Notes: generated by a model from the letters alone, not told the origin. A DNA stretch of 32,000 nucleotides from Vibrio vulnificus CMCP6 (GCF_000039765.1 NC_004459.3:2986104-3018103), one strand, 5' to 3'. Shown: positions 1 through 16,690, counted from the stretch's first letter. Numbers and translations are program-made.

Positions 1-75
1 TTCTGTTATCGCTGGACGTTCCAAAATAGCGTCTTGTTGCGTCTCACTAAGAGATTGCCAAACAACCGTTCTCAT
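1..75 (-). CDS. hisD: histidinol dehydrogenase, first 25 codons only (gene runs off the window start)
   Basis: The reverse strand reads ATG at 75..73, giving MRTVVWQSLSETQQDAILERPAITE. It starts 6 nt after the hisG stop, which is the canonical hisG-hisD order, and is preceded by GGAG. Confidence 0.75.
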   Translation of the reverse strand, partial: MRTVVWQSLSETQQDAILERPAITE

Positions 76-80
76 GAGCC

Positions 81-977: not shown

Positions 978-1023
978 GACATTGTCCCTGTGCTTCAATT
1001 TGAAAATGATGAAAGTGAAAACT

Positions 1024-1060
1024 AAAAAACCCTCGAGAGATGTTGGTCTCCCGAGGGTTT
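1024..1060 (-). terminator. his attenuator terminator (segment 3:4 hairpin plus U-run)
   Basis: The minus strand reads CCCTCGGGAGA-CCAACA-TCTCTCGAGGG followed by TTTTTT, an 11-bp stem. It lies between the His-rich leader ORF and hisG. Upstream copies of CGGGAGA/CTCCCGG at 1085-1130 could form alternative pairings. Confidence 0.8.
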
Positions 1061-1132
1061 AAAATCTGAATTTGATGATTTTCACCTCCGGGAGTTTCCT
1101 ATCTCCCGGGTATGCGTACATCTCCCGAAAGA

Positions 1133-1180
1133 CTAGACTGGGTGATGATGGTGATGAATGTTCATTACAAAATTACGCAT
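1133..1180 (-). CDS. hisL: his operon leader peptide, MRNFVMNIHHHHHPV (or the shorter MNIHHHHHPV starting at 1165)
   Basis: Five consecutive His codons (CAT CAC CAT CAT CAC) at 1156..1142 are followed by Pro-Val-stop, directly upstream of the attenuator hairpins and hisG. Confidence 0.75.
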   Translation of the reverse strand: MRNFVMNIHHHHHPV

Positions 1181-1284
1181 ACTTATATAGGCTCTTAGCT
1201 TGATTGCTTCGTTGATAACCACACTAACTAAGCTTCCCTTATTTTGCAACACTTTATTTAAAAAAATATCAATTTGTATAAGAC

Positions 1285-1313
1285 AAATAAAAAGGGTAGA
1301 CGAAGCCACCCTT
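1285..1313 (-). terminator. rho-independent terminator after the NhaC-family transporter gene
   Basis: The minus strand reads AAGGGTGG-CTTCGT-CTACCCTT followed by TTTATTTG, about 25 nt after the stop at 1338. Confidence 0.6.
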
Positions 1314-1337
1314 TCAAAGTTCATATAAATGAAGACG

Positions 1338-2939
1338 TTACGCTTGTTGGCAAGACTCAATCTTTGCTTTTGACAACCAAGAGAGGATTGCACAAACGAT
1401 GATGAATGCCATGGTTGCAGCCGCTAGTGAGAACATAACGGAAGCGGTCATACCCAATACAACGAAACCAATACAAGAAACCAACGCCACTGCAAGTGCA
1501 TAAGGTAACTGAGTCGCTACGTGGTCAATATGATGACAACGAGCGCCCGTTGAAGAAAGAATCGTCGTATCAGAAATCGGTGAACAGTGATCACCAAAAA
1601 CAGAACCAGCTAATACTGCACTTAGCATAGGAAGCATAAGAGCGATATCTGTCGCACCCGCCATATCACCCGCGATAGGTAGCATAATACCAAACGTGCC
1701 CCACGATGTTCCGGTAGAAAACGCCATCAAACCAGAAAGCAGGAATAGAATCACAGGTAGCCAATGAGGGTTAATATTGCCTTGTGCCATGGTAGACAAG
1801 TAGCTACCCGTTTTCATGTCGCCAATAACCGAACCGATAGTCCAAGCGAAAATCAGAATAAGGATTGCACCAAACATCGATTTAGCACCGATCCATAAAG
1901 TGCGAGCAATTTCTGCAACTGGAAGACCTTGTTTGAACACGGTGAACAAGGCCACAGCCAAACCAACCAGACCACCATAAATAAGCGATGTACCTACGTT
2001 GGTATTTTCGAATGCACCAAGCAAGTCAAAAGCTTTACCATCCGCCGCAAGTGCTTGGCCACCGGTATAGAGCATTGAAGCGACCGTTGCAATAATCAAA
2101 GCAATGATCGGCATAACAAGATCGGTCACTTTACCTTTATCGCTTTCACGGATATCAAGCTCTTCGTCAATTTCATGCGCTTCTTTTAGGTCAGTATCAG
2201 CGTCATTGTCAAAGCCACGACCTTGTGAGGCAGCAATTTCATGTTCACGCATTTTACCAATGTCTAAACCAAACCAAGCGACCGCAAACACCATTAACAA
2301 GGCGAAAATCGCGTAGAAGTTCATCGGTACTAAACGTAGATATGCGCCTAATGCGGAATATTCAGTGATGCCATGTGACACCAAAATACCGCCGATAATG
2401 GTCATGATGTACGCACCCCAACTCGATGCAGGCATCACCACACACATTGGTGCTGCTGTTGAGTCTAGAATATAAGCAAGTTTGGCGCGTGAAACATAAA
2501 AGCGGTCCGTTACTGGGCGAGAAATCGCACCCACAGCTAGGCTATTGAAATAGTCGTCTACAAAAATGAATACGCCTAAAAACGCTGCTAGTAATTTCGA
2601 ACCTCGCTTACTTTTCACTCGAGTCTGTGCCCATTCAGCAAAAGCTCGAGTGCCTCCAGAAAGAGTCAGTAGAGCGGTGGTCATGCCCAATAACAACAAG
2701 AAACCAACAATACTCATATTCCAAGTATTGATGCCACCATCTTCAATAAAAACAGCTGAAACTTTATCTGTAATATAAGCTGCCGCAGAGCCTACCGAAT
2801 AATCATTCAGTAACACTGCACCTAGAAGAATACCGACACCAAGCGATACAAGCACTTTACGCGTTAAAATGGCTAGCGTCAGTGCCACTATCGGCGGTAA
2901 AAGTGAAATGGGAGATGTAGCAAAATCTATTAAATTCAT
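1338..2939 (-). CDS. NhaC-family Na+/H+ antiporter-type membrane transporter (candidate lysine transporter of the LysW type)
   Basis: This is a polytopic membrane protein of about 533 aa with overall NhaC-family character. The track ORF starts at a TTG (2948); the first ATG is at 2939 (MNLIDFATSPISLL...). A lysine riboswitch lies in its leader. Confidence 0.85.
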   Translation of the reverse strand: MNLIDFATSPISLLPPIVALTLAILTRKVLVSLGVGILLGAVLLNDYSVGSAAAYITDKVSAVFIEDGGINTWNMSIVGFLLLLGMTTALLTLSGGTRAFAEWAQTRVKSKRGSKLLAAFLGVFIFVDDYFNSLAVGAISRPVTDRFYVSRAKLAYILDSTAAPMCVVMPASSWGAYIMTIIGGILVSHGITEYSALGAYLRLVPMNFYAIFALLMVFAVAWFGLDIGKMREHEIAASQGRGFDNDADTDLKEAHEIDEELDIRESDKGKVTDLVMPIIALIIATVASMLYTGGQALAADGKAFDLLGAFENTNVGTSLIYGGLVGLAVALFTVFKQGLPVAEIARTLWIGAKSMFGAILILIFAWTIGSVIGDMKTGSYLSTMAQGNINPHWLPVILFLLSGLMAFSTGTSWGTFGIMLPIAGDMAGATDIALMLPMLSAVLAGSVFGDHCSPISDTTILSSTGARCHHIDHVATQLPYALAVALVSCIGFVVLGMTASVMFSLAAATMAFIIVCAILSWLSKAKIESCQQA

Positions 2940-3044
2940 GATCTTCAAAAACCAAAGTTTGGCTAGAGATCTACTGCAGACAAAGTAAACAGGATGTCCG
3001 TTACTTATGTTGAACTAAGCGACAGGGAAGTGAACACTTCACCC

Positions 3045-3222
3045 AACCTACAGTAGCGCTCCATAGTTATACATTAAATACTATGGCAGTGTTGTTCCTT
3101 TCGGATGCAACCCCAGCAAACTGCTTTGATATGCAATTCACTTCGGCAATGGATACCTTTCACTATTATTCATTGGCATCACCCCAATAATAGTTACTCT
3201 TTACCATTGCGCCTCTACGTCG
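3045..3222 (-). promoter_or_regulatory. lysine riboswitch (L-box) aptamer in the 5' leader of the NhaC-family gene
   Basis: The minus strand carries the conserved L-box blocks in order: GTAGAGGCGC, AGAGTAAC, GGGG, GAAAGG, TTGCCGAAG, CTGG, CTGCCA, GGAGCGCTACTGT. Supporting pairings are GCAATGG/CCATTGC, CTATTATT/AATAATAG, CATAGT/ACTATG, and P1 GTAG/CTAC. Confidence 0.85.
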
Positions 3223-3714
3223 ATAACAAATTCTTAACTATCTGCCGATTAAAAAAACAACAAATAATCTAATTTATCGCATCAGGTAGCGGCTATTGTA
3301 CTCATGACGCTCCTCATTGCAACAGATCTGTCTTAAGTTGATTAAATTTGAAAAATCAATATGAGACAGGTTTTCTATTGCCGTTTCATTAATCCATTCT
3401 CTTTGCATCATGATACTAATAATAGAAAAAATGAGATCACAAACCACTTTCCATTGAACCATTTTGTTATAAAGCCATCTAATCATTCGTAAAATATTTT
3501 TGAGATAGCTTTTTGTTCAGTGAAGGAATTGCTTCTACAACTTTCGTCTGTCTTAGAAATTTTATAATCATTCTTTTTTAATTTTTTTACTTTTAATATT
3601 GCTTATATTGTATTGCGCGTTAATATTAGCATCGTAAGAATTAATCTAGTTTGTTTAATTTAATTCTCGGTATTATTATTAGACAATCGACTTAGCGAAT
3701 ATATAGGAAAGGTT

Positions 3715-4122
3715 ATGTCTGAACTAACAAAAACTCTGTTGAACATTCGCAGCCTACGTGCGTTTTCTCGTGAACTTACTCTTGAGCAATTAGAAGAAGC
3801 TCTAGATAAATTGACAACTGTTGTTGCAGAGCGTCAAGAAGCGGAAGCAGAAGAACGTGCAGCGAAAGCTGAACAAGAAGCGAAACTAGCGGCTATCGCA
3901 GAACAAATTGCTAAAGATGGTATCGATGTCGAAGCACTAATCAGCGCACTTGCTGGCGAAACTAAAGTGAAGAGCAAAGGTAAACGTGCTCCTCGCCCAG
4001 CGAAATACAAGTACGTTGACACCAATGGTGAAGAAAAAACTTGGACTGGTCAAGGTCGTACACCTTCTGCAATCCAAGCTCAATTAGATGCGGGTAAATC
4101 TCTAGAAGATTTCGAAATCTAA
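3715..4122 (+). CDS. hns: nucleoid-associated DNA-binding protein H-NS
   Basis: The 135-aa protein has an N-terminal coiled-coil (MSELTKTLLNIRSLRAFSRELTLEQLEEALDKL), an Ala/Glu-rich linker, and the C-terminal TWTGQGRTP DNA-binding motif. AGGAAAGG lies upstream of the ATG, and the upstream region is very AT-rich. Confidence 0.95.
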   Translation: MSELTKTLLNIRSLRAFSRELTLEQLEEALDKLTTVVAERQEAEAEERAAKAEQEAKLAAIAEQIAKDGIDVEALISALAGETKVKSKGKRAPRPAKYKYVDTNGEEKTWTGQGRTPSAIQAQLDAGKSLEDFEI

Positions 4123-4140
4123 TACATTTTAGATATCAGT

Positions 4141-4166
4141 AAAAAGGCTCCTTTCGGAGCCTTTTT
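4141..4166. terminator. bidirectional rho-independent terminator shared by the convergent hns and gsk genes
   Basis: The sequence is AAAAA-GGCTCC-TTTC-GGAGCC-TTTTT, a perfect 6-bp GC-rich stem flanked by an A-run and a T-run. Confidence 0.85.
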
Positions 4167-4167
4167 A

Positions 4168-5472
4168 TTATCTTTCCCAATACGCTTCTTCTAAGCTATC
4201 TTCGCGTTCAGGTAAGCCACGAGATAGGCGCGGAGAATGTTGTACCAACACTTCATAACTGGCGCGGTTAGCATACTTACACACTTGAGAAAAAGATGAG
4301 TATGTCAAAAACTCATACACGTGCTTACTTGAGTTTGGCACGTTTTCTTTGTGATATTTGTTTGCCGCCATATCGTGCAGTACCGCTGAAAGTGCAGCAT
4401 CACCTGCCCCATTGGTATTTTTAATTTTCTCAGGACCGCCCATATACGGTGAAATATGTGAATAGACTTTAATCGGGTTTTCACAAGATGCTTTTTTCGT
4501 TGGACGACTAAATTCATAACGATTGAATTCAGCAATGCAGCCTGGAAGTAACGGTAGAGATGTTTCACGCTTCGCGCTGTCTTCTGTATAACCGGCCATA
4601 AATAGACCAAGCGGACCCGCAGTACAAAGTACCATGTCTGCCCAATCCAGTGTTTTATCTGAAGCGGCTAAAGGATCGGACTCCCCAGTCAATGCTTCGG
4701 CTTCATCTTCATTCATCGCAACTACCGTCACATTATCACGAATAAATTCTTGCCAGAAGGTTGGGTCATCTTGAATCACAAATTTAGTGCCAAGCGTCAA
4801 AACAACAGGTACATCGTATTTTTTTGCGTACTCGATGGCTTTCATCGTCGCATCAGGCATTGGATCACCTTCTTTACAACGAATCAAATAAGCGGTGAGC
4901 ACCAAAGCTGAGGCTTTTTTAAAGATCTTTTCCGGAATATTATCTGGATGAAGTTGGTTCATTTGACCTTCACTAATCGCAAAAGTGCGTTCACCATCTT
5001 CGGTAATCAACGCGAAACAGCGACCAATCGCGCCATCGACACCTTGCAGATAATTAAGATCCATACGGCTTGATGTGTTACATAAGTAACGGTATCCGTA
5101 ACTACCAATCTTAATATCTTGACTCATCACGCCCAATAATGTCGAACGATCATCTGCGAGCACTGAGTAATTGTGCAGCGTATTGCCAATCGTACCGCCA
5201 GCGTATTCGTTGGTAATCAGATTTTCTTGCTTTAACTGCTGATATAGCGCTTCTGCCGTCACATCGTCAATAACCAGCGAGTGCCCTTTACTCAAACCGT
5301 ATTTTTCAATCATTTCCGACGTCACTCTCGCTTCGATATCCACCAAAGTTTGATCAATACCGATAATATGAGTACGCGTCATTTTCTTGCTTTCCTGCGC
5401 CTGACTCACTAATGGGTCACGTGCATGTACGGGAAAATAGTGTTTTGATTTGCGCTGTCCGGGAAATTTCAT
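4168..5472 (-). CDS. gsk: inosine-guanosine kinase
   Basis: The 434-aa protein is collinear with E. coli Gsk from the N-terminus (MKFPGQRKSKHYFPV...) to the C-terminus (...PEREDSLEEAYWER). It carries the PfkB-type NTNGAGDAA motif. Confidence 0.95.
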   Translation of the reverse strand: MKFPGQRKSKHYFPVHARDPLVSQAQESKKMTRTHIIGIDQTLVDIEARVTSEMIEKYGLSKGHSLVIDDVTAEALYQQLKQENLITNEYAGGTIGNTLHNYSVLADDRSTLLGVMSQDIKIGSYGYRYLCNTSSRMDLNYLQGVDGAIGRCFALITEDGERTFAISEGQMNQLHPDNIPEKIFKKASALVLTAYLIRCKEGDPMPDATMKAIEYAKKYDVPVVLTLGTKFVIQDDPTFWQEFIRDNVTVVAMNEDEAEALTGESDPLAASDKTLDWADMVLCTAGPLGLFMAGYTEDSAKRETSLPLLPGCIAEFNRYEFSRPTKKASCENPIKVYSHISPYMGGPEKIKNTNGAGDAALSAVLHDMAANKYHKENVPNSSKHVYEFLTYSSFSQVCKYANRASYEVLVQHSPRLSRGLPEREDSLEEAYWER

Positions 5473-5549
5473 AGTGTTTGTCTGAGTACGGGGTTAAAAG
5501 AAGTGCGGATTCTAACTCGCACTCCCATAGGCGGCAATAAAGGCAATTA

Positions 5550-5565
5550 TAGCAAACGTTTGCTA
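5550..5565. promoter_or_regulatory. candidate PurR operator overlapping an extended -10 promoter of gsk
   Basis: TAGCAAACGTTTGCTA is a perfect palindrome matching the PurR core GCAAACGTTTGC. On the minus strand it runs straight into TGCTATAAT (-10 at 5551..5546), about 75 nt upstream of the gsk ATG. Confidence 0.6.
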
Positions 5566-5588
5566 CGTACTTTTTATTTTGCGAGGCG

Positions 5589-5858
5589 CTATTCACCTTC
5601 CATAAAGCTTAAATCTGGCAGGCAATCCAAGTTTTCGCTGTAACGTTTTAAATTGAACTCGCCGTCATTTTTCATCACGTCGAAAATCTCAATTGACATT
5701 GCACACGCCATCATCGCCACCGCATCTTCACGAGGCGTGCCTGTCATCATTAGGCGCATCAACGTTTCTTTGACCTTGATTGGATTTCCATCTTCAAGTT
5801 GATTTTCAATGATCTCGATAAGATCCGCCTCTTGCATAAATTGCATTTCGTCAGTCAT
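5589..5858 (-). CDS. small acidic hypothetical protein (89 aa); family not confidently recognised, possibly DUF1841-like
   Basis: The ORF is clean, has an ATG start and lies in the same orientation as gsk. Its composition resembles that of neighbouring genes. The ribosome-binding site is weak and I see no recognisable catalytic motif. Confidence 0.5.
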   Translation of the reverse strand: MTDEMQFMQEADLIEIIENQLEDGNPIKVKETLMRLMMTGTPREDAVAMMACAMSIEIFDVMKNDGEFNLKRYSENLDCLPDLSFMEGE

Positions 5859-6047
5859 GATGTTTACTCATTAGGATTTTTTCCAACTATGCCACATTCC
5901 CACTCAGAGCTCGCGCGGAATTTCTTTTCGCTTGTCCTTTTGCTGAAAAAAGCAGCGAAAACGAATTGTGATTGCGATCTCGGATCTGTCACCCGTTTCT
6001 GCTTTCTGTTAGAATTCGCCTCCAGTTAATTTTAGTGGTGTTGAGTA

Positions 6048-7172
6048 ATGTCTGATAACAGCCAAAAGAAAGTCATCGTTGGTATGTCTGGCGGTGTAGA
6101 TTCATCGGTTTCTGCCTATCTTCTAAAACAGCAAGGCTATCAAGTTGAAGGCCTATTTATGAAGAACTGGGAAGAAGATGATGATTCTGAGTATTGTACT
6201 GCGGCAGAAGATCTCGCCGACGCTCAGGCTGTTTGTGACAAACTTGGCATTCACCTACATAAGATCAACTTTGCTTCAGAATATTGGGACAATGTATTCG
6301 AATATTTCCTTGCCGAATACAAGGCGGGCCGTACCCCTAACCCAGACATCCTTTGTAACAAAGAAATTAAGTTCAAAGCGTTTTTAGAATTTGCCGACGA
6401 AGTACTTGATGCCGATTACATCGCGATGGGCCATTATGTCCGTCGTTCTTTCCCTGAAAATGGTGAAAAGCCACAGATGCTGCGTGGTTTAGACGGCAAT
6501 AAAGATCAGAGCTACTTCCTCTACACGCTAAGTCACGAACAAGTGGCACGTAGCCTCTTCCCTGTTGGCGACCTGGAAAAGCCAGAAGTTCGTCGCATTG
6601 CGGAAGAACAAGGTCTGATTACCGCGAAAAAGAAAGATTCTACCGGTATCTGTTTTATCGGCGAACGTAAGTTCACCGATTTTCTAAGCCGCTACTTACC
6701 AGCTCAACCGGGTAATATTGAGTCGCCAGAAGGCGAAGTGCTTGGTCAACACCAGGGTTTGATGTACCACACGCTAGGCCAACGTAAAGGCCTACATATT
6801 GGTGGCCGTAAAGGCGGTGGCGGTAACGAAGAACCATGGTTTGTTGCAGAAAAAGACCTTAAGCGCAATGTGTTGATTGCCGTTCAAGGACAAGATCACC
6901 CGATGCTGAAGTCCGAAGGCCTAATTGCTTCTCAGCTTCATTGGGTAGAACGTGAGCCAATTCGCGATGTGGTGAAATGCACGGTGAAAACTCGTTACCG
7001 TCAACAAGATATTCCTTGTACAATCATCCCTATTGATGACGAAAACATTAAAGTAATTTTCGATGAACCTGAGATCGCAGTGACCCCAGGTCAATCCGCT
7101 GTTTTCTACCAAGGTGATGTTTGTCTTGGTGGTGGTATCATCGAGAAACGCATTAAATATACTCAAGCTTAG
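6048..7172 (+). CDS. mnmA: tRNA 2-thiouridine(34) synthase (tRNA-specific 2-thiouridylase)
   Basis: The PP-loop motif SGGVDSS lies near the N-terminus ([26 protein letters not shown]). Similarity to MnmA/TrmU extends over the full length. Confidence 0.95.
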
Positions 7173-7182
7173 GAGTCGTTAC

Positions 7183-7800
7183 GTGGCGAATACACTTTAT
7201 GACCGTACCATTGCTTTTGCTGGCATGTGCCAAGCTGTGGCATTAGTTCAGCAAATCGCGAGAAACGGACATTGTGATCAAGATGCCTTTGAAACTTCTA
7301 TTAAAGCAATTTTGAATACCAATCCAGCCAACACACTTGATGTGTTTGGCAATGAGTCACAACTCAAACTGGGTTTGGAATGCTTAGTAAAAGGGATTGA
7401 TAGTACCCCCACTGGTAGCGAAGTGACTCGCTACCTCATCAGTTTGATGGCGTTAGAGCGCAAACTGATGGGCAGGAATGATGCGATGTCACAACTTGGC
7501 GATCGTATTCAGATGGTACAAAGACAGACGGAACACTATGATCTTTTTGAAGAACAGATGATCAGCAATGTGGCCAGTATCTACCTCGATGTTATCAGCC
7601 CTATCGGCCCTCGAATCCAAGTGACAGGTACGCCGACGGTATTACAACAAACATCGAATCAACACAAAGTACGTGCGTTACTCCTTTCTGGTATTCGCAG
7701 TGCCGTGCTTTGGCGTCAAGTTGGCGGTCGACGCCGCCATCTGATCTTCGGCAGAAAGAAAATGGTTGAGCAGGCGCAGATCCTGCTGGCTAGAATGTAA
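7183..7800 (+). CDS. hflD: high-frequency-of-lysogenization protein HflD
   Basis: From the GTG at 7183 (AGGAG 8 nt upstream) the protein reads [32 protein letters not shown]..., collinear with E. coli HflD. The track start at 7114 would overlap mnmA by 59 nt and add non-homologous residues. Confidence 0.88.
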
Positions 7801-7811
7801 TTCGACCATTA

Positions 7812-7843
7812 TTAGCTCGCGCCAGACGCGAGCTAATTGTTTT
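7812..7843 (+). terminator. rho-independent terminator after hflD
   Basis: The sequence is TTAGCTCGCG-CCAGA-CGCGAGCTAA followed by TTGTTTT, a 10-bp perfect stem. Confidence 0.8.
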
Positions 7844-7859
7844 GGTCAAAATCACCTTA

Positions 7860-7875
7860 GCGCAAACGTTTGCGC
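7860..7875. promoter_or_regulatory. candidate PurR operator upstream of purB
   Basis: GCGCAAACGTTTGCGC is a perfect 16-bp palindrome with the PurR core. It ends 7 nt upstream of a putative promoter, GTGACA (7883-7888)-N17-TATAAA (7906-7911). Confidence 0.6.
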
Positions 7876-7927
7876 AATATTCGTGACAATTGCCACAGTT
7901 ATTGGTATAAAGCTCGCGAAATTTTGA

Positions 7928-9319
<1,392 letters not shown>

Positions 9320-9375
9320 GAGAATCGAGAATCGAGAATCGAGAATCGAGAATCGAGAATCGAGAATCGAGAATC
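9320..9375. repeat. perfect heptanucleotide tandem repeat (GAGAATC)x8
   Basis: I counted eight uninterrupted copies directly in the sequence. The array begins at the base after the purB TAA stop and ends 11 nt before the terminator stem. Confidence 0.95.
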
Positions 9376-9386
9376 GGATAATTGTT

Positions 9387-9483: not shown

Positions 9484-10017
9484 TTATTGCCTCTGGAAGA
9501 ACAACGTAATCGTCCCTACCTCTACGCCAAACTTCTTAATCTTGGTGAGATTAAACACATGCTTTTCATCTTGGCGATAAAGCCAATCATCAAAGGATAC
9601 CGTCAAGCTTGAACCATCGACTTGCAGTTCAAAATCATAGCGCCATTGCAGTGCATTACCCAGCTCCATTCCCTCAGCAACGCCGATAATATCGTCAGCT
9701 TCGCCTTGATAGCGACCATCGGACAATCGGGTAATCCGCCAAATGCGCTGATCAATCTCACCATCGTCAAAAACAAAATCTTCAACGAGCGTCAGTGTGT
9801 TATTGTCAACAGAACCAACAATCTCAACCTCAAAGCGTCTGGTTTGTTTACCGCTATAGTCTTGCACCATGCCCCAAGCTTTCACATTTCCAGAAAAATA
9901 CTCAAACAGTTCAAACTTTGGAGATGCTTGCTGGTAGTCCTTAAGGTCACTCGAACAGCCGACCAAAACGTTCAATGTCATAACAAGCAAGACGATAAAA
10001 ACATTATGTTTGTTCAT
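9484..10017 (-). CDS. DUF3833-family lipoprotein (last gene of the eight-gene operon)
   Basis: The signal peptide has the lipobox LVGC|SS (MNKHNVFIVLLVMTLNVLVGCSSD). The family assignment comes from recalled sequence character. The ATG lies 1 nt after the upstream gene's stop. Confidence 0.8.
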   Translation of the reverse strand: MNKHNVFIVLLVMTLNVLVGCSSDLKDYQQASPKFELFEYFSGNVKAWGMVQDYSGKQTRRFEVEIVGSVDNNTLTLVEDFVFDDGEIDQRIWRITRLSDGRYQGEADDIIGVAEGMELGNALQWRYDFELQVDGSSLTVSFDDWLYRQDEKHVFNLTKIKKFGVEVGTITLFFQRQ

Positions 10018-10018
10018 C

Positions 10019-10582
10019 TTATTGATTCCATCCGATTAATTTTGCTCGCAAAGAGGGATATTGAGTTTTTGGCGATAACCAAATCGCGAGGAAAGCATCG
10101 TTAAGCTCCTGATCAGCCACATCACCGGCCACTTCAGCTTTGTCACTGTCATGTCGAATAAAAAGCAAACGCCCTTTTTCTCCATCAGTAATGTAGGTCA
10201 GTTTGTCGCCTTTTTTGATGTTGGGAAAAATCAGCTCGAGGCTATCTCTCCACGGTTTTTTCGCTGTGATACCCATCTTTTGCCACTGCTCTTCCGTTGC
10301 ACTGAGTAGATCCTCACGTGAAATATCGCGTAAGTATCGAATCTCCAAGGCGAGGGGATGTGGCGTAACATCTGCATTCACCTCGAACTCACCATTTGGT
10401 GTAACCAACTTAGAATCATAGATATCAAAGACAAACCAGCTCAATCGTGCCTCCCCAACGGTCTGCCACTGCTGCCAAGTCTCAATGTCTGCTGCTCCTG
10501 TTTGACCATAAGAGCTAGACGAAACGCCTAGCAAAAGACTAAGAAACGTACTCCGAATGACACAACTTGCTTTTCTCATCAT
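10019..10582 (-). CDS. secreted chalcone-isomerase-fold (CHI-like) family protein
   Basis: The N-terminus carries a Sec signal (MMRKASCVIRSTFLSLLLGVSSSSYG|Q). The body resembles bacterial chalcone-isomerase-like proteins that co-occur with cfa-like clusters. The start overlaps the upstream gene by 44 nt. Confidence 0.7.
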   Translation of the reverse strand: MMRKASCVIRSTFLSLLLGVSSSSYGQTGAADIETWQQWQTVGEARLSWFVFDIYDSKLVTPNGEFEVNADVTPHPLALEIRYLRDISREDLLSATEEQWQKMGITAKKPWRDSLELIFPNIKKGDKLTYITDGEKGRLLFIRHDSDKAEVAGDVADQELNDAFLAIWLSPKTQYPSLRAKLIGWNQ

Positions 10583-11054
10583 GGCGAAGAACCTTAATGA
10601 TAAAGAGCGTGATGATTGCCCATTCTAAAAACACAATCGATGCCGTTATCAACACGCTGTAACCGTAAGCCACCGCATTGAGTTTATAACCTGCGTAGTA
10701 ACTTAAGCAGCCCCCCAATGCACCTACTGTTAATACGTAAAACGGAGCAAAACGGAGCAAAATTCTTTTCAGTTGATAAGCGTACCAAGCAAAAACTACC
10801 CATAAGCTTAAAAGCCAAACGGGTAAGAAAGTCGACGTGAACTGAAAAATTGAGAGATATTGATTGAGCGAGTCGACTAGGCAGCCGACCACGGCAATCA
10901 ACAGCGTTGGTTTCCAGGTTTTTTGGTCTACTCGGTACTGATACCCCAATGTCATCAAGGCAAAGCAGAGTGTGACCCATTGCCACTGCTCGGTGCCAAT
11001 AACCGCAAGAAACCAAACGAGATTGAACCAAGCAGAGGCGAGAATAAGAGCCAT
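10539..11054 (-). CDS. DUF2878-family integral membrane protein
   Basis: The 171-aa protein is highly hydrophobic, with Trp/Tyr-rich predicted TM segments. Its ATG lies 4 nt after the cfa-like stop. Confidence 0.7.
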   Translation of the reverse strand: MALILASAWFNLVWFLAVIGTEQWQWVTLCFALMTLGYQYRVDQKTWKPTLLIAVVGCLVDSLNQYLSIFQFTSTFLPVWLLSLWVVFAWYAYQLKRILLRFAPFYVLTVGALGGCLSYYAGYKLNAVAYGYSVLITASIVFLEWAIITLFIIKVLRHDEKSKLCHSEYVS

Positions 11055-11058
11055 GATA

Positions 11059-12315
11059 CTAGGCTCTTTGAAGCGTCATGTGTACGGTACTGATGCTACG
11101 AGCTAAGAATCCCCCCTCACAATAACTTAGGTAGTAACGCCACATACGAATAAATCGCTCATCATACCCTAGTCTTTTGACTTGCTCTTCAGCGTGGTTA
11201 AAACGTCGGTGCCATTCTTGTAATGTTTTTGCGTAATCCATCCCAATATCAAACAAATCTCTAATCACTAAATCACTGTATTGGGTCGTGGCTTGAGCCA
11301 GTGAAGTCACTGACGGTAAAAATCCCCCCGGGAAAATGTACTTTTGAATAAAATCGACGTTGTTACTGTAATATTCGTAACGTTGGTCGGCGATAGTGAT
11401 CGCTTGTATTGCCATCAAACCACCAGGTTTTAATAATGACTGGCACACCTTGATGTAAGACGGTAAATATTGCTTACCTACCGCCTCTATCATTTCGATA
11501 GAAACCAATTTATCAAACTGCCCAGTTAAATCTCGATAATCTTTCTTCAATAACTGAATACGCTCAGTCAAACCTCTTTCTGCAATCTGTTGTTTTGCGT
11601 AGTCATATTGCTCATCTGAAATCGTCGTGGTTGTCACCCGGCAGCCATAGGTTTCCGCCATGTATATCGCCATTGCCCCCCAACCTGTGCCGATTTCAAT
11701 CACCTCATCACTGGGTTTTAATTGCAATTGCTGACACAAGCGATCCATTTTATTTATTTGTGCTTGCTCTAATGATTCACTATCCGAGTGATAAAGGGCT
11801 GACGAATATAACATTCTCTCATCCAAGAATACTCTGTAGAGGTCATTACCAAGATCATAATGGGCATGAATATTTTTACGCGAGTTTTCCTGCGTATTTC
11901 GATTGCTCCAATGACTGAGTTTGTAAAGCAGTTTGGTGACCCAGCTACTTTGGTTTTCTAATCCATCTAATGCATTCAGATTGAGCGCCATTAATTTCAT
12001 TAACGAAGTTAAATCCGGACTGTCCCACCAACCATCCATATAGGCTTCACCTGCTGCTATACTCCCCCCTCTCAACACACGAGAATAGAAGCCGGGGTGT
12101 TTGACTTCGATTGTTGCGCTAATGGCCACACCCGGCTTGTGATTGTGTGCCCCTACAAAGCGTTCACTACGCTCTTGAGAGTCACTTTGAAAACTTTCAA
12201 TGACCGTCAAAGTGCCGATTTCCATACGCTGTAAGCACTTAAATATCAGAGTCCTAGCCGCCTTTTGTGCTGTAGATAATGGAGAGGTAAATGCCATCGA
12301 AGAAGTATTTAACAT
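11059..12315 (-). CDS. cyclopropane-fatty-acyl-phospholipid-synthase-family SAM-dependent methyltransferase
   Basis: The protein has the SAM-binding motif VIEIGTGWG and the CFA/mycolic-acid-synthase-type C-terminus (YYLSYCEGGF). An AGGGAGA ribosome-binding site is present. Confidence 0.88.
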   Translation of the reverse strand: MLNTSSMAFTSPLSTAQKAARTLIFKCLQRMEIGTLTVIESFQSDSQERSERFVGAHNHKPGVAISATIEVKHPGFYSRVLRGGSIAAGEAYMDGWWDSPDLTSLMKLMALNLNALDGLENQSSWVTKLLYKLSHWSNRNTQENSRKNIHAHYDLGNDLYRVFLDERMLYSSALYHSDSESLEQAQINKMDRLCQQLQLKPSDEVIEIGTGWGAMAIYMAETYGCRVTTTTISDEQYDYAKQQIAERGLTERIQLLKKDYRDLTGQFDKLVSIEMIEAVGKQYLPSYIKVCQSLLKPGGLMAIQAITIADQRYEYYSNNVDFIQKYIFPGGFLPSVTSLAQATTQYSDLVIRDLFDIGMDYAKTLQEWHRRFNHAEEQVKRLGYDERFIRMWRYYLSYCEGGFLARSISTVHMTLQRA

Positions 12316-12350
12316 GCAGAATTCTCCCTAAATTTATTATTCTTCACAGT

Positions 12351-13124
12351 TTAGTTGTTATTCTCAGTCCGGTTGGCTGGAGAGCGGTATTTGGGATGCG
12401 AGTAAAATGGTGCACCTTTTTTCCATAATTTGAACGCATGCCAGTAAATCCCTACCAACACTTTTACTGTTTGAATAGGCGTTACGATCAGTCGTTTTAG
12501 CAGATTGCTACTAGAAAATGGCTCTGCACTCATCGCCATGGTGGCATCAAACTGTTTATTTTCTTTGTGGCATTCCAAATGAATATGTAACTTTTCACTG
12601 AGCGGTTTAAGTCGCCAAATATAAGACTGTTCAATGGGGTTAAAGGGTGAAACGTGAAATGCTTTGGTTTGTTTCCAGCCAAAAGACGAGTCATGTTCAT
12701 CCGCAGAAATAGCGTAATAATGACGCTCATTCCAAGGAGTGTTACTCACTTCCGCCAGTAAATAGCGCCAGTGCTCTTTCTCATCAAAAACGTAGTAGAA
12801 ATTAACCGGGCTAAAGTAGAGCCCAAGATAGCGGAGGTGGCACACCGCGATAACCCTACCGCTGACTGACTCCCCGGTGAGCTCTGTGATTTTCTCTTGC
12901 ACTGCGCGTTTGAGGCAGCCCTTCCCTACATAGTCGCTGCGTTTAAATCGCGCCCAATGCCACCAGCGAGTGCCAAACCCCCACACTTCTTTTTCAAGCT
13001 GCGTTAACTCGTCCAAATCGATCGCTGGCATGAACAATTGATAATTCAAACTATGCTCTACTGGGGTAAAGCGGCGGTGCCGAACATTACCCACAAACAG
13101 ACGACTACTGATGGCCATGTTCAC
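12351..13124 (-). CDS. DUF1365-family protein
   Basis: The N-terminal GNVRHRRF motif is typical of DUF1365. The GTG start (13124) overlaps the upstream stop as GTGA. An alternative ATG is at 13118. Confidence 0.8.
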   Translation of the reverse strand: MNMAISSRLFVGNVRHRRFTPVEHSLNYQLFMPAIDLDELTQLEKEVWGFGTRWWHWARFKRSDYVGKGCLKRAVQEKITELTGESVSGRVIAVCHLRYLGLYFSPVNFYYVFDEKEHWRYLLAEVSNTPWNERHYYAISADEHDSSFGWKQTKAFHVSPFNPIEQSYIWRLKPLSEKLHIHLECHKENKQFDATMAMSAEPFSSSNLLKRLIVTPIQTVKVLVGIYWHAFKLWKKGAPFYSHPKYRSPANRTENNN

Positions 13125-14413
13125 GCCGCCCCTTGGTGAAAAGAAGTCGCCTCTTCTTTCGCGTGCACAAGGTTGATGCCTCGCACCACATCCAAGGCGC
13201 TGCGAACGCCATCTTCATGGAATCCGTTGTACCAATACGCACCGCAAAACCATGTGTGATTTCGCCCTTGAATGTCATCTCGTCTCTGCTGTGCCGCGAT
13301 CGACTCTGTGGTAAATACCGGATGGTGGTAAACAAACTTACGGATAACTTTGTCTTCGTCTATCTTGTCGCTGCTATTGAGCGTCACGCAAAACGTATGT
13401 TCTGCTTCAATGTGCTGGAGAATGTTCATGTTGTAGGTTAACGAAGGTAAGCGTGTGTCTTCTCCTTCCTTACCATCGAGTAAATAGTTCCACGATGCCC
13501 ACGCAGCCTTTCTGCGAGGCAGCAAGCTGTCATCTGTATGCAAAACAACCTCGTTGGCTTGATATGCCATACGCGACAAAATCGAGGCTTCATCACAGGA
13601 AGCATCCTCCAATAGCGACCTCGCTTGATCGCTGTGACAGGCAAAAATAACGTGATCAAAACGTTGTGCTGCTCCTGCAACATATAATGTGACACCCGTT
13701 GAGTCGCGGATCACTTTTTCAACTGGACAGTTCAAACGAATACGATCAGAGAAGCCCTTCGTTAATGGCGGGATGTAAGCTTTTGAGCCACCATCAATCA
13801 CGTACCACTGTGGTCGGTTGGTAACATCAAGAAGGCCATGATTGAGAAAGAAACGTAGAAAAAACGTAAGAGGGAAAGCACGCATATCCGCTAAGGTCGA
13901 TGACCAAATCGCAGCCCCCATTGGCAAGATATAGTTGTCGCTAAAATAGTCACTAAAGCCATGCGTATCTAAGAACTCCCCAAGTGTTTGTTGGGCAATG
14001 TGGTCATGGTGCGCAGACGCTTTTGCCAGTTTGTTAAAGCGCAGGATTTCAAAAATAAAACCGTAGAACTGCGGTTTAAACCAGTTCCTTTTTTGAGCAA
14101 ACAGTGTCGCCAGCGTGTGGCCATTGTACTCAAGTCCATTGCTGTCATTGCGAACACTAAAGCTCATTTGGGTTGCACGCCCAGTCACGCCAATTTCATC
14201 CATCATATTGATGAAATTGGGGTAGGTTCGATCGTTATAGACGATGAACCCCGTATCGACTGAGTAGTCTTTACCGTTGAGTGCAAAATCGATCGTCGCC
14301 GTATGCCCTCCAATGTAATCATTGGCTTCAAACAGTGTAATGTCATGCGCTTTGTGCAGATGGTAGCCACATGTTAATCCGGAGATGCCTGTACCTATTA
14401 TTGCAATTTTCAT
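13121..14413 (-). CDS. NAD(P)/FAD-dependent oxidoreductase (amine-oxidase / phytoene-desaturase-like)
   Basis: The N-terminus carries the dinucleotide-binding motif MKIAIIGTGISGL...EANDYIGGH. The 430-aa length fits the flavin amine-oxidase fold. Confidence 0.88.
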   Translation of the reverse strand: MKIAIIGTGISGLTCGYHLHKAHDITLFEANDYIGGHTATIDFALNGKDYSVDTGFIVYNDRTYPNFINMMDEIGVTGRATQMSFSVRNDSNGLEYNGHTLATLFAQKRNWFKPQFYGFIFEILRFNKLAKASAHHDHIAQQTLGEFLDTHGFSDYFSDNYILPMGAAIWSSTLADMRAFPLTFFLRFFLNHGLLDVTNRPQWYVIDGGSKAYIPPLTKGFSDRIRLNCPVEKVIRDSTGVTLYVAGAAQRFDHVIFACHSDQARSLLEDASCDEASILSRMAYQANEVVLHTDDSLLPRRKAAWASWNYLLDGKEGEDTRLPSLTYNMNILQHIEAEHTFCVTLNSSDKIDEDKVIRKFVYHHPVFTTESIAAQQRRDDIQGRNHTWFCGAYWYNGFHEDGVRSALDVVRGINLVHAKEEATSFHQGAA

Positions 14414-14429
14414 ACATTATCCTTTGAAT

Positions 14430-15155
14430 TTATTGGGCAATTAATTTTGAAGCTAACGCCTTCTGCCAACGGTAAGGCAGTAACGCAAGTAACCGAATAA
14501 GAGCGGTAAACCGAGCGGGAAAATAGATGTGCTGCTTCCCGGATGCCAATTGTTGCCGAATCGCCTTTGAGGCTTGTTCAACCGTGATGATCATCGGCAT
14601 TGCAAACGTATTTTTGTCCGTCAGCGGAGTGGCAACAAAACCAGGAAAGACAGTGACAACATCAATGCCCTTGGCTTGAAGATTGAGCGACAAGCTACGC
14701 GCAAAATACCCAATCGCGGCCTTAGACGCGCCATACGCTTCCGCTCTTGGCAGGGCGAGTTCCGAAGCAATAGAACCGACAATCACCACCTTGTGTCCAG
14801 GTTGAAAATGGGTTTGGCTGGCCTCGATACAGTTCACCACACCAAAAACATTGACGCTGAACACACGTTGCATCAATTGGGCATCAACGATGCCATCGTC
14901 CATGTATTCACAATCACCGGCGTTAAATATCCAAACGTTTGGAATAAAGGGCAGCACCGATAATGCCTCTCGCGTTTGCTGGTAATCCGTGACATCAAAA
15001 CTGATCGTTGCTATGGCGGGGGAATAATCTTCTAGCTCTTGGAGAACCTGACGATTGCGTCCGCATGCAATCACTTTTGCACCTGCATCAGCAAAATCTT
15101 TCGCTAGCTGCTTGCCGATCCCCGATGTCGCACCGGTAATGAGCACTGAGTTCAT
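14430..15155 (-). CDS. short-chain dehydrogenase/reductase (SDR)
   Basis: The protein has the TGATSGIGK cofactor motif and the YGASK catalytic motif. Its ATG overlaps the upstream stop (ATGA). Confidence 0.9.
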   Translation of the reverse strand: MNSVLITGATSGIGKQLAKDFADAGAKVIACGRNRQVLQELEDYSPAIATISFDVTDYQQTREALSVLPFIPNVWIFNAGDCEYMDDGIVDAQLMQRVFSVNVFGVVNCIEASQTHFQPGHKVVIVGSIASELALPRAEAYGASKAAIGYFARSLSLNLQAKGIDVVTVFPGFVATPLTDKNTFAMPMIITVEQASKAIRQQLASGKQHIYFPARFTALIRLLALLPYRWQKALASKLIAQ

Positions 15156-15571
15156 TGCCCTAACCTCTGCTTTATGGCCCGAATGATCCCACCCAGTAAC
15201 GGAAGGTTTTCATAGAGCATTTCGCCAAGGTCAAAATAGTCGCGGTGGTAAATCACCTTCCCCGCTTCAAATTTGAGGTGTGAAACGCCTTTAACCTCGA
15301 CACTGGCCCCTTTTTTGAGTTTGGGATGCTGTAACGTCATCGTCCAAGTAAGAAAGCCTACATTGTCGATTTGGTGCTGCTCATGAATATCGAAACGGCA
15401 GTCAACCACGTTTTCATAAAGATTGGTAAAGTAAAGCTCCAACGCTTGCCAACCCTCTAAGCGATGTGCAGCATCCTCAAACACGACGTTTCTATGATAT
15501 ACATCCGCCAGTAAGTGAAGATTGTCTTTATTCAGTGCTCGGTACACATTACCGACCTTCATCGCGTCCAT
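15152..15571 (-). CDS. NTF2-like (SnoaL-type) small protein, first gene of the operon
   Basis: The 139-aa size and sequence character fit nuclear-transport-factor-2-family proteins. An AAGGGA ribosome-binding site is present, and the gene is 4-nt coupled to the SDR gene. Confidence 0.65.
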   Translation of the reverse strand: MDAMKVGNVYRALNKDNLHLLADVYHRNVVFEDAAHRLEGWQALELYFTNLYENVVDCRFDIHEQHQIDNVGFLTWTMTLQHPKLKKGASVEVKGVSHLKFEAGKVIYHRDYFDLGEMLYENLPLLGGIIRAIKQRLGQ

Positions 15572-15675
15572 ATTTCCCTTGTTCCATGGTTAAAGTGTTT
15601 TAAAAACAGTCACATTTAAAACATAGACTAGTGTAAGCAGTTATACCGATTGTTTTTTTGTATAACTTCTACTGA

Positions 15676-15701
15676 ATACGAGAGGGGAAAAATTTGGATC
15701 A
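15676..15701 (-). promoter_or_regulatory. candidate ECF (ChrR-controlled sigma-E type) promoter, TGATCC-N15-CGTAT
   Basis: The minus strand reads TGATCC (15701..15696), AAATTTTTCCCCTCT, then CGTAT (15680..15676). The motif lies about 105 nt upstream of the operon's first ATG and immediately downstream of the htpX terminator. The match is to a consensus recalled from memory. Confidence 0.4.
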
Positions 15702-15704
15702 CTC

Positions 15705-15739
15705 AAAACGAAAAAAGCCCAGAGAGAGTTCTCCAGGCT
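15705..15739 (-). terminator. rho-independent terminator of htpX
   Basis: The minus strand reads AGCCTGGAGA-ACTC-TCTCTGGGCT (10 bp including 2 G-U pairs) followed by TTTTTCGTTTT. Confidence 0.7.
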
Positions 15740-15811
15740 TTCTGTTTCGAATCCAATTCGCTGATGAGTTGACTCACCTTTGCATCGATTCGCGATTCAC
15801 TTGTCGCATCA

Positions 15812-16690
15812 TTAGAAATTGCGAAGGGCAGCGATACGCTTATCGAGTGGCGGGTGGCTCATAAGCAGTTCCGTTAGAGATTGCTTACCGTTGATACCAA
15901 ATGCCATCATGGTGCCATCCAGTTTTGATTCTTGGCTCATTTTTAGACGCTCTAGAGCCGCTATCATTTTCTCTTTACCAACTAGACGGGCGGCTCCCGC
16001 ATCGGCATGGAATTCACGATGACGGCTATACCACATGGTGATGAAGCTCGCGAGGAAACCAAACACCAGCTCAAGCGCGATAGAAACCGCGAAATACACC
16101 ATCATGTTTGAACCTTCACCTTCTTCATCGCTGTTATTAGAAGCCACCATGTTGGCAATAAAGCGAGACAAGAAGATAACGAAGGTGTTCACAACACCCT
16201 GCATCAACGTCATGGTCACCATGTCACCATTGGCGATATGGCTCACCTCATGCGCCAGCACCGCTTCTGCTTCATCACGTGTCATGTTGTGCAGCAGACC
16301 CGTAGAAACCGCGACCAGCGAATCGTCACGCTTTGCCCCAGTTGCAAACGCGTTGATATCCGGCGAATCATAAATGGCAACGGTTGGCATACCAATGCCC
16401 GCTTGCTGAGCTTGGCGACTCACCGTTTCCAATAACCAGTGCTCTGTCTCGTTACGAGGGCTCTCGATCACCATTCCACCGACAGAGCGTAGTGCCATTC
16501 CCTTTGACATCATCAAGGAGATAAATGCACCACCAAAACCAAATACCGCAGCCATCACCAATAAACCTGAGAGGCTTCCTGGCTGCATTCCAGTTACAGC
16601 ATAAACAATGTTCAACACAACGCTGAGGACTAGAACCACAGCTAGGTTGGTAATTAAAAACACATGACTCGCTTCATTACTTTTCTCCAA
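15812..16690 (-). CDS. htpX: M48-family zinc metalloprotease HtpX (start uncertain: TTG 16690 or GTG 16663; see the frameshift finding)
   Basis: The protein carries the HEVSH (HExxH) motif and is collinear with E. coli HtpX from FLITNLAV onward. The canonical RBS-plus-ATG (16677) is in a different frame. Confidence 0.9.

Follow-up and report, generated by a model that had tools for sequence, protein, structure and literature searches.

What do the eight genes packed between purB and htpX in Vibrio vulnificus CMCP6 make, and under what control? They lie on the minus strand of a 32,000-nucleotide (nt) stretch (GCF_000039765.1, NC_004459.3:2986104-3018103), here termed the window, whose coordinates are used throughout. 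The genes had been proposed from the sequence alone as a translationally coupled lipid-modification operon and as the best candidate for an under-described system. The analysis indicates an ortholog of V. cholerae VC1118-VC1125, likely a photo-oxidative-stress operon that turns the acyl chains of membrane phospholipids into methylated furan fatty acids (FuFA). To call the system under-described is an overstatement, as the cluster is already published as a member of a ChrR, MerR/PhrR or LitR regulon in V. cholerae and Pseudomonas, and the description stands for the role of the five genes that accompany the core.

The eight co-directional open reading frames run from position 15571 down to 9484 and code for 139, 241, 430, 257, 418, 171, 187 and 177 amino acids (aa). 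Genes 1 and 2 overlap by 4 nt (ATGA), 16 nt separate genes 2 and 3, genes 3 and 4 share 4 nt (GTGA), the next two gaps measure 35 and 4 nt, genes 6 and 7 overlap by 44 nt and a single nt lies between genes 7 and 8, in agreement in every particular with the packing in the original prediction. Public assemblies of the same species that carry the gene 5 and gene 8 proteins exactly as here have independent gene calls, and these agree on the eight genes and on the 44-nt overlap. The start of gene 4 varies in those assemblies, either the GTG (257 aa) or an ATG two codons downstream (255 aa); with the latter, the 4-nt overlap with gene 3 turns into a 2-nt gap. Pfam assigns the products in order to SnoaL_2 (E-value = 4e-16), adh_short (3e-35), Amino_oxidase/NAD_binding_8 (3e-21), DUF1365 (5e-76), CMAS (2e-84), DUF2878 (6e-29), Chalcone_3 (5e-8) and DUF3833 (3e-65). 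Every one of these hits exceeds its curated cutoff, and all eight family assignments made beforehand hold. The flanking genes are likewise those named beforehand, purB (7949-9319, plus strand) and htpX (15812-16690, minus strand).

The core genes and probable furan fatty acid synthesis

Three genes, all on the minus strand, form the core of the operon. Gene 3 (13121-14413) codes for a flavin adenine dinucleotide (FAD)-dependent protein of the amine-oxidase fold, gene 4 (12351-13124) for a DUF1365 protein, and gene 5 (11059-12315) for a methyltransferase of the CMAS family that uses S-adenosylmethionine (SAM). The original prediction was made to depend on the placement of these genes in the flavin-oxidoreductase, DUF1365 and cyclopropane fatty acid (CFA) synthase families, and the profile search places all three there. 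It also named a link to the ChrR/sigma-E regulon and to UfaD, UfaO and UfaM of Rhodobacter sphaeroides, which is correct according to Lemke et al. (2020; PMC7380195). In that work UfaD is RSP1091, which desaturates 11-methyl-12-trans-18:1 to the 10,12-diene with the help of flavin, RSP1090 is UfaO, a DUF1365 protein, and UfaM is a CFA-like methylase that puts in the methyl branch. All steps act on phospholipid acyl chains, and the three proteins are necessary and sufficient for 9M5-FuFA. The UniProt entries of UfaD, UfaO and UfaM are Q3IYV7, Q3IYV8 and Q3J4I7.

The same three genes are found contiguous elsewhere. In Rhodopseudomonas palustris, RPA2571-2570-2569 are ufaD-ufaO-ufaM in that order and are enough for FuFA synthesis. 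Halomonas sp. YLGW01 has ufaD, ufaO and ufaM in a row, and its UfaM yields 11-methyloctadec-12-enoate in E. coli. RSP1091 is 430 aa long, as is the product of gene 3. From the identities of the three Rhodobacter proteins, the contiguous gene order and this length, gene 3 is therefore taken as UfaD-like, a probable fatty acyl desaturase, gene 4 as UfaO-like and gene 5 as UfaM-like. The Vibrio enzymes would, by analogy with the characterised homologs, make the same products.

Conservation of the neighbourhood, which the original prediction had named as a check, was followed with a profile built from diverse DUF1365 proteins. One genome per species was scanned, which gave 80 loci, and the open reading frames of these loci were scored against the eight window proteins; counts refer to the 67 loci with enough flanking sequence. 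Genes 3, 4 and 5 are all present in 67/67 loci, gene 3 always just upstream of the DUF1365 gene, so that the pair that overlaps by 4 nt in the window is adjacent throughout. The scan of 80 loci returned no Rhodobacter or Rhodopseudomonas locus.

Gene 3 displays a GxGxxG motif at its N-terminus, and its nearest solved structure is LkcE (9e-46). The sequence search of the PDB gave no solved relative of gene 4. The DUF1365 proteins have invariant residues in the profile of diverse homologs, and gene 4 is most likely, by analogy with UfaO, an O2-dependent enzyme that forms the furan ring. UfaO needs no reductant, and this would be explained by a route from the 1,3-diene and O2 via an endoperoxide and then dehydration, for which there is chemical precedent (PMC10777415).

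A separate observation concerns the database matches of gene 4. The closest homologs among the 120 best matches listed, all from Vibrio, show 77-78% identity. In contrast, V. vulnificus proteins match gene 8 at 97% and gene 7 at 93% identity, and exact copies of genes 5 and 8 are found in many assemblies. The missing conspecific matches of gene 4 are treated as a quirk of the database and not as biology.

Predicted promoter, candidate operator and regulator neighbourhoods

The sequence TGATCC-N15-CGTAT (equivalent to TGATC-N16-CGTAT) lies at 15701-15676 on the minus strand, about 105 nt upstream of the gene 1 ATG. It is the sole match in the window, where 0.03 matches are expected by chance. 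The published consensus for sigmaE-ChrR promoters is TGATC-N16-18-CGTAT, and the VC1118 site is 102 nt upstream (Tardu et al., 2017; PMC5241685). Loci from Vibrio, Photobacterium and Alteromonadales have similar sites ahead of gene 1. By motif, the site would be an extracytoplasmic function (ECF) sigma factor promoter of the ECF11 (sigmaE-ChrR) type for the operon. Position 15701, given as the end of the operon in the original prediction, falls at its -35 element. The unit is delimited on its 5′ side by a terminator-like hairpin of htpX (15712-15743, minus strand), which has a stem of 14 pairs and then a run of T. The T-tract continues straight into the -35 element, and the layout of hairpin and then TGATC is common to other Vibrio species.

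A palindrome, GTTATAC-N13-GTATAAC, is situated just downstream of the -10 element at 15666-15640. It aligns with the AAGTTGTACAA...TGTACAACTT boxes in an intergenic alignment of seven other Vibrio species. The hexamer form TATACA-N11-GGTATA has one mismatch to the pattern and, with 0.65 chance matches expected, is at chance level when taken alone; the extended palindrome is unique in the window, with a pattern that was defined after the site had been seen. In the 20-kb related loci, TGTACA-N10-13-TGTACA boxes are found almost only at the head of light-inducible genes. These boxes resemble the footprinted operator consensus of Pseudomonas LitR, T(G/A)TACA-N12-TGTA(C/T)A. The palindrome is an only moderately secure candidate operator for a MerR-family light regulator of the LitR/PhrR type.

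A second perfect inverted repeat of 9 nt (TGTTTTAAA / TTTAAAACA, 10 nt apart) occurs at 15596-15623, between the candidate operator and the ribosome-binding site of gene 1. It aligns roughly with the second TGTACA box of V. cholerae and does not match the motif.

The V. cholerae orthologs lie between htpX (VC1117) and purB (VC1126), and their expression has been followed by RNA-seq (Tardu et al., 2017; PMC5241685). The supplementary table, in which the order of columns was inferred from a header fragment, gives the following changes from dark to blue light in reads per kilobase per million (RPKM): VC1118, 75 to 8485; VC1119, 59 to 3071; VC1120, 86 to 3453; VC1121, 63 to 1396; VC1122, 69 to 2127; and VC1123, 54 to 363 (PMC5241685). 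Dependence on sigmaE and ChrR was shown for these orthologs by RNA-seq and quantitative reverse-transcription PCR, and VC1118-VC1123 are derepressed in the dark in a chrR mutant (PMC5241685). In this mutant VC1118 is still 2.5-fold inducible by light, a response that is lost in the chrR merR double mutant, where dark expression rises further (PMC5241685). In addition, RegPrecise lists VC1123 in the regulon of the MerR-family protein 'PhrR' (per PMC12971978). The Vibrio promoter region appears to combine an ECF11-type promoter with a LitR-type operator, and both regulators appear to be used.

No gene for an ECF sigma factor, ChrR or a MerR-type protein is found in the 32-kb window, as had been stated beforehand. 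A regulator encoded within the window was considered and rejected, H-NS and Lrp being the only ones there. The sigma factor and the MerR-type regulator of the operon appear to be encoded elsewhere in the genome and to act in trans.

The related loci show how the cluster is wired in other bacteria. Clustering of their open reading frames shows that 27 loci adjoin an ECF sigma factor gene, 26 of them together with a ChrR-type anti-sigma factor (zf-HC2 plus Cupin_7). Another 27 adjoin a MerR-type regulator, mostly with TudS/DUF1722 and photolyase genes, and no locus has both regulators. Placement of the cluster between htpX and purB with no regulator nearby is found among these loci in Vibrio only. 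The mutually exclusive neighbourhoods indicate an ancient structural cluster that has come under one or the other of two photo-oxidative regulators, which looks like regulator swapping on a conserved set of genes. Membership of the singlet-oxygen regulon named in the original prediction is supported by the ECF11-type promoter in the window, by the data on the V. cholerae orthologs and by the rpoE-chrR type of neighbourhood in 27 other genomes.

A stand-alone protein with a LON substrate-binding domain is encoded near rpoE-chrR in 13 loci of the Alteromonadales type (e.g. L031:2957-3577). Such a protein is of interest for the question of which protease turns ChrR over.

Taken together, these results make FuFA synthesis under photo-oxidative control the likely function of the operon, and the following course of events is proposed. 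In the dark, the ECF11 sigma factor would be held by ChrR, and the palindrome that follows the promoter would be occupied by a MerR-type LitR/PhrR repressor. Exposure to blue light, peroxide or singlet oxygen would free sigmaE and lift the repressor, and transcription would begin from TGATCC-N15-CGTAT. The UfaM-like product of gene 5 would convert cis-vaccenate to 11-methyl-12-trans-18:1, the UfaD-like flavoenzyme of gene 3 would convert this to the 10,12-diene, and the UfaO-like DUF1365 protein of gene 4 would close the furan ring with an oxygen atom from O2. In the bilayer, the FuFA would then act as a scavenger of radicals and singlet oxygen, and, as proposed for Rhodobacter, FuFA oxidation may exert feedback on the turnover of ChrR.

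Several points weigh against this account. No lipid analysis of the operon for any Vibrio was found in the searched literature, and VC1122 was regarded as a CFA synthase by Tardu et al. (2017; PMC5241685). The best NCBIfam match of gene 5 is still Cfa, though below the cutoff. The link to the characterised enzymes of R. sphaeroides and R. palustris was drawn from common Pfam families, from synteny, from protein length and from BLAST tables published on Pseudomonas, and not from direct alignment. The spacer of the window operator is 1 nt longer than in V. cholerae. In R. sphaeroides, in-frame deletions of RSP1089, RSP1088 (lipoprotein) and RSP1087 (SDR, short-chain dehydrogenase/reductase) left FuFA unaltered (PMC7380195), which also agrees with the earlier statement that the five companion genes have no assigned role. 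Lastly, the orthologs of the final two genes are barely induced by blue light and have high basal expression, with VC1124 going from 387 to 580 and VC1125 from 1989 to 3315 RPKM in the same table (PMC5241685).

It is possible, though only tentatively proposed, that the main output is instead a signal, in which an oxidation product of FuFA reports singlet-oxygen damage in the membrane and drives proteolysis of ChrR in a positive feedback. Loss of RSP2144 or RSP1091 in R. sphaeroides slows the turnover of ChrR and lowers the activation of sigmaE by singlet oxygen, and a review proposes FuFA peroxidation as a second messenger. The evidence for such a role comes from R. sphaeroides, however. Furthermore, the cluster often occurs beside a MerR-type regulator and with no adjacent ChrR, and thus persists in genomes that do not encode the target of the feedback next to it. 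A signal of this kind would be compatible with FuFA synthesis as set out above.

The accessory genes and the extent of the operon

The other five genes, also on the minus strand, surround the core. Gene 1 (15152-15571; 139 aa) is the ortholog of VC1118 and codes for an NTF2-like protein with a SnoaL_2 domain. The annotation of VC1118 as a transcriptional regulator is rejected, as Pfam finds the SnoaL_2 domain and no DNA-binding domain. Gene 2 (14430-15155; 241 aa) codes for a classical SDR with the motifs TGxxxGxG and YxxxK. It scores 473 bits, above the cutoff of 406, to the NCBIfam equivalog PRK06101, itself uncharacterised, and literature mapping makes it the counterpart of RSP1087, VC1119 and PSPTO_1119. 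The PDB sequence searches gave nothing for genes 1, 6, 7 and 8, as with gene 4, and nothing at E <= 1e-20 for gene 2.

Gene 6 (10539-11054; 171 aa), the VC1123 ortholog, codes for a predicted polytopic inner-membrane protein of the DUF2878 family, with about five hydrophobic segments by hydropathy. Deletion of VC1123 in V. cholerae raises colonisation of the infant mouse and increases ompU 316-fold, while ompT goes down (PMC12971978), a phenotype that fits an effect at the level of the envelope.

Gene 7 (10019-10582; 187 aa), which overlaps gene 6, codes for a secreted protein of the chalcone isomerase (CHI) fold with an N-terminal segment like a signal peptide. Its AlphaFold2 (AF2) model has a predicted local distance difference test (pLDDT) score of 82.6 with a disordered N-terminus, and Foldseek matches it to CHI, CHI-like protein (CHIL), the yeast proteins AIM18p/AIM46p and the fatty-acid-binding AtFAP1 of Arabidopsis. 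Gene 8 (9484-10017; 177 aa) codes for a DUF3833 lipoprotein with the lipobox LVGC, in which Cys21 is invariant; it is the counterpart of VC1125. Its AF2 model (pLDDT 89.8) is a 10-stranded beta-barrel of the fatty-acid-binding protein (FABP)/calycin type. Foldseek matches of the barrel include BFA1, the OssO/OlmO spirocyclases, the FABP-like Ycf58, nitrobindin and lipocalins, with TM-scores of 0.55-0.68, which denote likeness of fold class and not a functional assignment. The folds of both models are known to bind hydrophobic ligands. The published 'core' sigmaE-ChrR regulon includes an SDR (RSP1087) and a lipoprotein (RSP1088); the first corresponds in type to gene 2 and the second, from its description as a lipoprotein, probably to gene 8.

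These genes accompany the core less regularly than the core genes accompany one another. Gene 2 is found in 49/67 loci and gene 1, immediately upstream of the SDR gene, in 47/67. Gene 6 is present in 37/67 loci, and about ten more DUF2878 genes are recognised by Pfam only; a DUF2878 gene follows the methyltransferase in ~47/67. Gene 8 is present in 36/67 loci and gene 7 in 35/67, nearly always together with gene 8. The complete set of eight is found in 26/67 loci, among them Vibrio, Salinivibrio, Photobacterium, Erwinia, Serratia, Enterobacter, Buttiauxella, Phytobacter, Pseudoalteromonas and Colwellia. Genes 6-8 lie apart from the core and upstream of it in Colwellia and are inverted in Oceanospirillaceae; they move as a cassette.

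A different set of companions is seen in beta-proteobacterial, Nitrospira-type and some gamma-proteobacterial loci. There the triad is found with a Blc-like lipocalin, a DUF1295 membrane protein and a membrane fatty acid desaturase (e.g. L062:14324-14986, L047:7868-8758, L064:7516-8622), whose genes replace genes 1, 2, 7 and 8.

As a working guess, FuFA or its oxidised derivatives would be the cytoplasmic substrates of the SnoaL-like protein and the SDR, and the binding or transport of modified or damaged lipid in the envelope would fall to the DUF2878 protein, the CHI-fold protein of the periplasm and the DUF3833 barrel lipoprotein. It can be suggested with little confidence that these are two add-on modules, the SnoaL-like protein and SDR processing the dioxoene products of FuFA, and an envelope route by which acyl lipids that have been modified or oxidised would be bound or passed between inner and outer membrane. 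One possibility is that the SnoaL-like protein and the SDR could reduce and then cyclodehydrate dioxoenes derived from singlet oxygen, which would regenerate the furan and amount to repair of the scavenger. The large OmpU/OmpT shift and the altered colonisation by the VC1123 mutant would agree with such a scheme.

The tight spacing and the conserved synteny favour a common function of the eight genes; however, the V. cholerae RNA-seq puts only the first six genes in the induced operon. The expression of VC1124 and VC1125 means that the last two genes may not share a transcript or a function with the others. The published operon prediction for V. cholerae also ends at VC1123 (PMC5241685), and with the expression data this makes an internal constitutive promoter for genes 7-8 likely. 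Scans for sigma-70 promoters and terminators inside the operon gave scores at or below chance, with no reliable internal promoter ahead of gene 7.

The eight genes might accordingly be two units that are merely adjacent, genes 1-6 being a stress-inducible lipid-modification operon and genes 7-8 a constitutive envelope pair transcribed separately. The dark levels of VC1124 and VC1125 (387 and 1989 RPKM) with less than 2-fold induction, and the operon prediction that stops after VC1123, speak for this division. It is nonetheless unlikely, given that genes 7 and 8 are found with the core in at least 33/67 loci from Vibrionales, Enterobacterales, Aeromonas and Alteromonadales, and that they stay near it even when shifted upstream (Colwellia) or inverted (Oceanospirillaceae). 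The lipoprotein gene RSP1088 is also within the R. sphaeroides operon and the proposed core regulon, gene 7 overlaps gene 6 by 44 nt in the window, and a separate internal promoter would be compatible with a shared function.

The methyltransferase, the genomic setting and known systems

The FuFA pathway proposed here calls for a gene 5 product that puts in a methyl branch and not a cyclopropane ring. Gene 5 aligns with E. coli Cfa (PDB 6bqc) at 1.7e-67 over residues 66-413, and scores 314 bits to the NCBIfam Cfa equivalog PRK11705, below the cutoff of 400. For comparison of residues, E. coli Cfa was aligned with 76 cluster-linked methyltransferases from the related loci. The side-chain ligands of bicarbonate in E. 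coli Cfa, which we take to be C139, E239, H266 and Y317, read S, E, Q and Y in gene 5. Position 266 is Q in 75 of the 76 cluster-linked proteins, including the methyltransferases of Halomonas-type clusters, a relative of which is a proven UfaM. In second, shorter CMAS methyltransferases from some of those loci H266 is kept in 9/9. Gene 5 has neither the equivalog score nor the full ligand set of a Cfa. The substitution fits an enzyme clade that would release a methyl-branched olefin instead of closing the cyclopropane, and gene 5 is, judged from these residues, its score and the synteny with the proven R. palustris and Halomonas ufaM genes, probably UfaM-like and not a true cyclopropane synthase.

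That gene 5 is a genuine CFA synthase and the cluster makes cyclopropane, cyclopropene or other modified chains in place of FuFA is improbable: CFA synthases are its top NCBIfam and PDB matches, VC1122 is annotated as one in the V. cholerae paper (Tardu et al., 2017; PMC5241685) and the Halomonas strain with UfaM contained cyclic fatty acids too, but gene 5 falls under the equivalog cutoff, its clade carries Gln for His266 and Ser for Cys139 at positions taken to be bicarbonate ligands, the gene is always linked to UfaD-like and UfaO-like genes, and the syntenic R. palustris and Halomonas genes have been shown to be cis-vaccenate 11-methyltransferases.

In three loci (L058:4182-5793, L067:746-2373 and L070:4958-6534) a second CMAS methyltransferase gene (~350 aa, His266 kept) is followed by its own DUF2878 gene. 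These pairs sit ~4-5 kb upstream of the UfaD-UfaO-UfaM core, and the shorter methyltransferase may be a FufM-like enzyme with a DUF2878 partner. That DUF2878 follows both the UfaM-like gene and this second gene suggests a partnership with such lipid methyltransferases, and the family is possibly a membrane partner of CMAS-type enzymes.

The remainder of the window is largely housekeeping in character. On the purB side are hisG, a gene of a Na+/H+ antiporter family, hns, a PfkB-family kinase gene, mnmA and hflD, and on the htpX side bioD/C/F/B/A, serS, rarA, lolA, ftsK, lrp and ald. The operon shares 98.4% nucleotide identity with one public assembly. Recent horizontal acquisition was considered and rejected; the GC content of the operon equals that of its flanks, and the order htpX-operon-purB is common to the seven Vibrio loci recovered (purB detected in five). 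A perfect 7-nt tandem repeat, GAGAATC x 8.1, lies between purB and gene 8 at 9320-9376, directly after the purB stop codon. Copy numbers of 7, 8, 9 and 12 are found across conspecific public assemblies, and the repeat is therefore a strain-variable variable-number tandem repeat. Rfam finds a lysine riboswitch at 3046-3225 (minus strand, 134 bits), upstream of the antiporter-family gene (1338-2948), and a histidine operon leader at 1021-1157 (minus strand, 90 bits), upstream of hisG; it shows no RNA element in the operon or its leader.

Part of this picture is already known: the cluster is a light or singlet-oxygen regulon member in V. cholerae, Pseudomonas and Rhodobacter, and the core chemistry has been solved in two alphaproteobacteria. 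An explicit link of the Vibrio 'cfa' operon to the FuFA pathway was not found in the searched literature. This assignment is an addition made here, together with the signature of the methyltransferase clade, the mutually exclusive regulator neighbourhoods, the dual promoter-operator layout in Vibrio and the fold-level descriptions of DUF3833 and the CHI-like protein. A specialist would find none of these very surprising. What is widely annotated as a 'cfa' operon in Vibrio is re-labelled here as a probable FuFA pathway, in species (V. vulnificus, V. cholerae) that are pathogens for which antimicrobial blue light is explored. One structural cluster is seen wired to either of two unrelated regulators of the response to light or reactive oxygen species (ROS), and in Vibrio apparently to both. 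It also offers FuFA biology a concrete set of genes, in the roles of the SnoaL-like, SDR, DUF2878, CHI-fold and DUF3833 proteins. The eight-gene set is present in Enterobacter, Serratia and Erwinia as well, so any function found applies well beyond Vibrio.

Among known systems, V. cholerae VC1118-VC1125 matches the window operon in its eight families, in their order and in its place between htpX and purB, with a sigmaE-type promoter and then LitR-like boxes. The DUF1365 protein of the locus labelled V. cholerae (L001) is ~65% identical to that of the window. V. cholerae has two operator palindromes, whereas the window displays one clear palindrome with the longer spacer. The Pseudomonas LitR/PplR cluster (P. 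putida, P. mendocina) and the P. syringae PSPTO_1121-1114 sigma/ChrR regulon are light- or ROS-inducible, like the Vibrio cluster. The Pseudomonas order is phrB, SDR, FAD oxidoreductase, a hypothetical protein, ufaM/cfa and further hypothetical proteins; this cluster includes photolyase and regulator genes, and the window has neither. Control in Pseudomonas is by a sigma-70 promoter with LitR repression, or by an ECF sigma factor in P. syringae, while the Vibrio promoter region appears to combine the two types.

R. sphaeroides RSP1091-RSP1087 with RSP2144 resembles the window operon in a flavin desaturase gene followed by the DUF1365 gene, in the presence of SDR and lipoprotein genes and in sigmaE-ChrR control. 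The R. sphaeroides operon is divergent from rpoE-chrR, however, and its active UfaM (RSP2144) is encoded elsewhere, beside a photolyase gene. In the window the regulators are unlinked, the methyltransferase is part of the operon and the SDR is at the opposite end; SnoaL-like, DUF2878 and CHI-fold genes are not reported from the R. sphaeroides operon. R. palustris RPA2571-RPA2568 and Halomonas sp. YLGW01 have ufaD-ufaO-ufaM contiguous in the order of genes 3-4-5, with demonstrated activity; the accessory genes around them are different or undescribed. A further R. palustris enzyme, FufM (UniProt Q6NBA4), leads to dimethyl-FuFA, and the window has no second methyltransferase of this kind.

E. 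coli Cfa (6bqc) shares with gene 5 the CMAS fold, the SAM-binding motif and the N-terminal lipid-binding domain. Unlike gene 5, E. coli cfa is a stand-alone gene regulated by growth phase, with no UfaD/UfaO partners, and it has C139 and H266 where gene 5 has S and Q. In Arabidopsis, AtUFAMD1 (AT3G23510) and AtUFAO1 (AT1G30130) are predicted to carry the same three activities as a methyltransferase/flavin-oxidase fusion and a DUF1365 protein. These are eukaryotic lipid-droplet proteins with UfaM and UfaD fused and with neither an operon nor accessory modules, and they differ in this from the eight separate genes of V. vulnificus.

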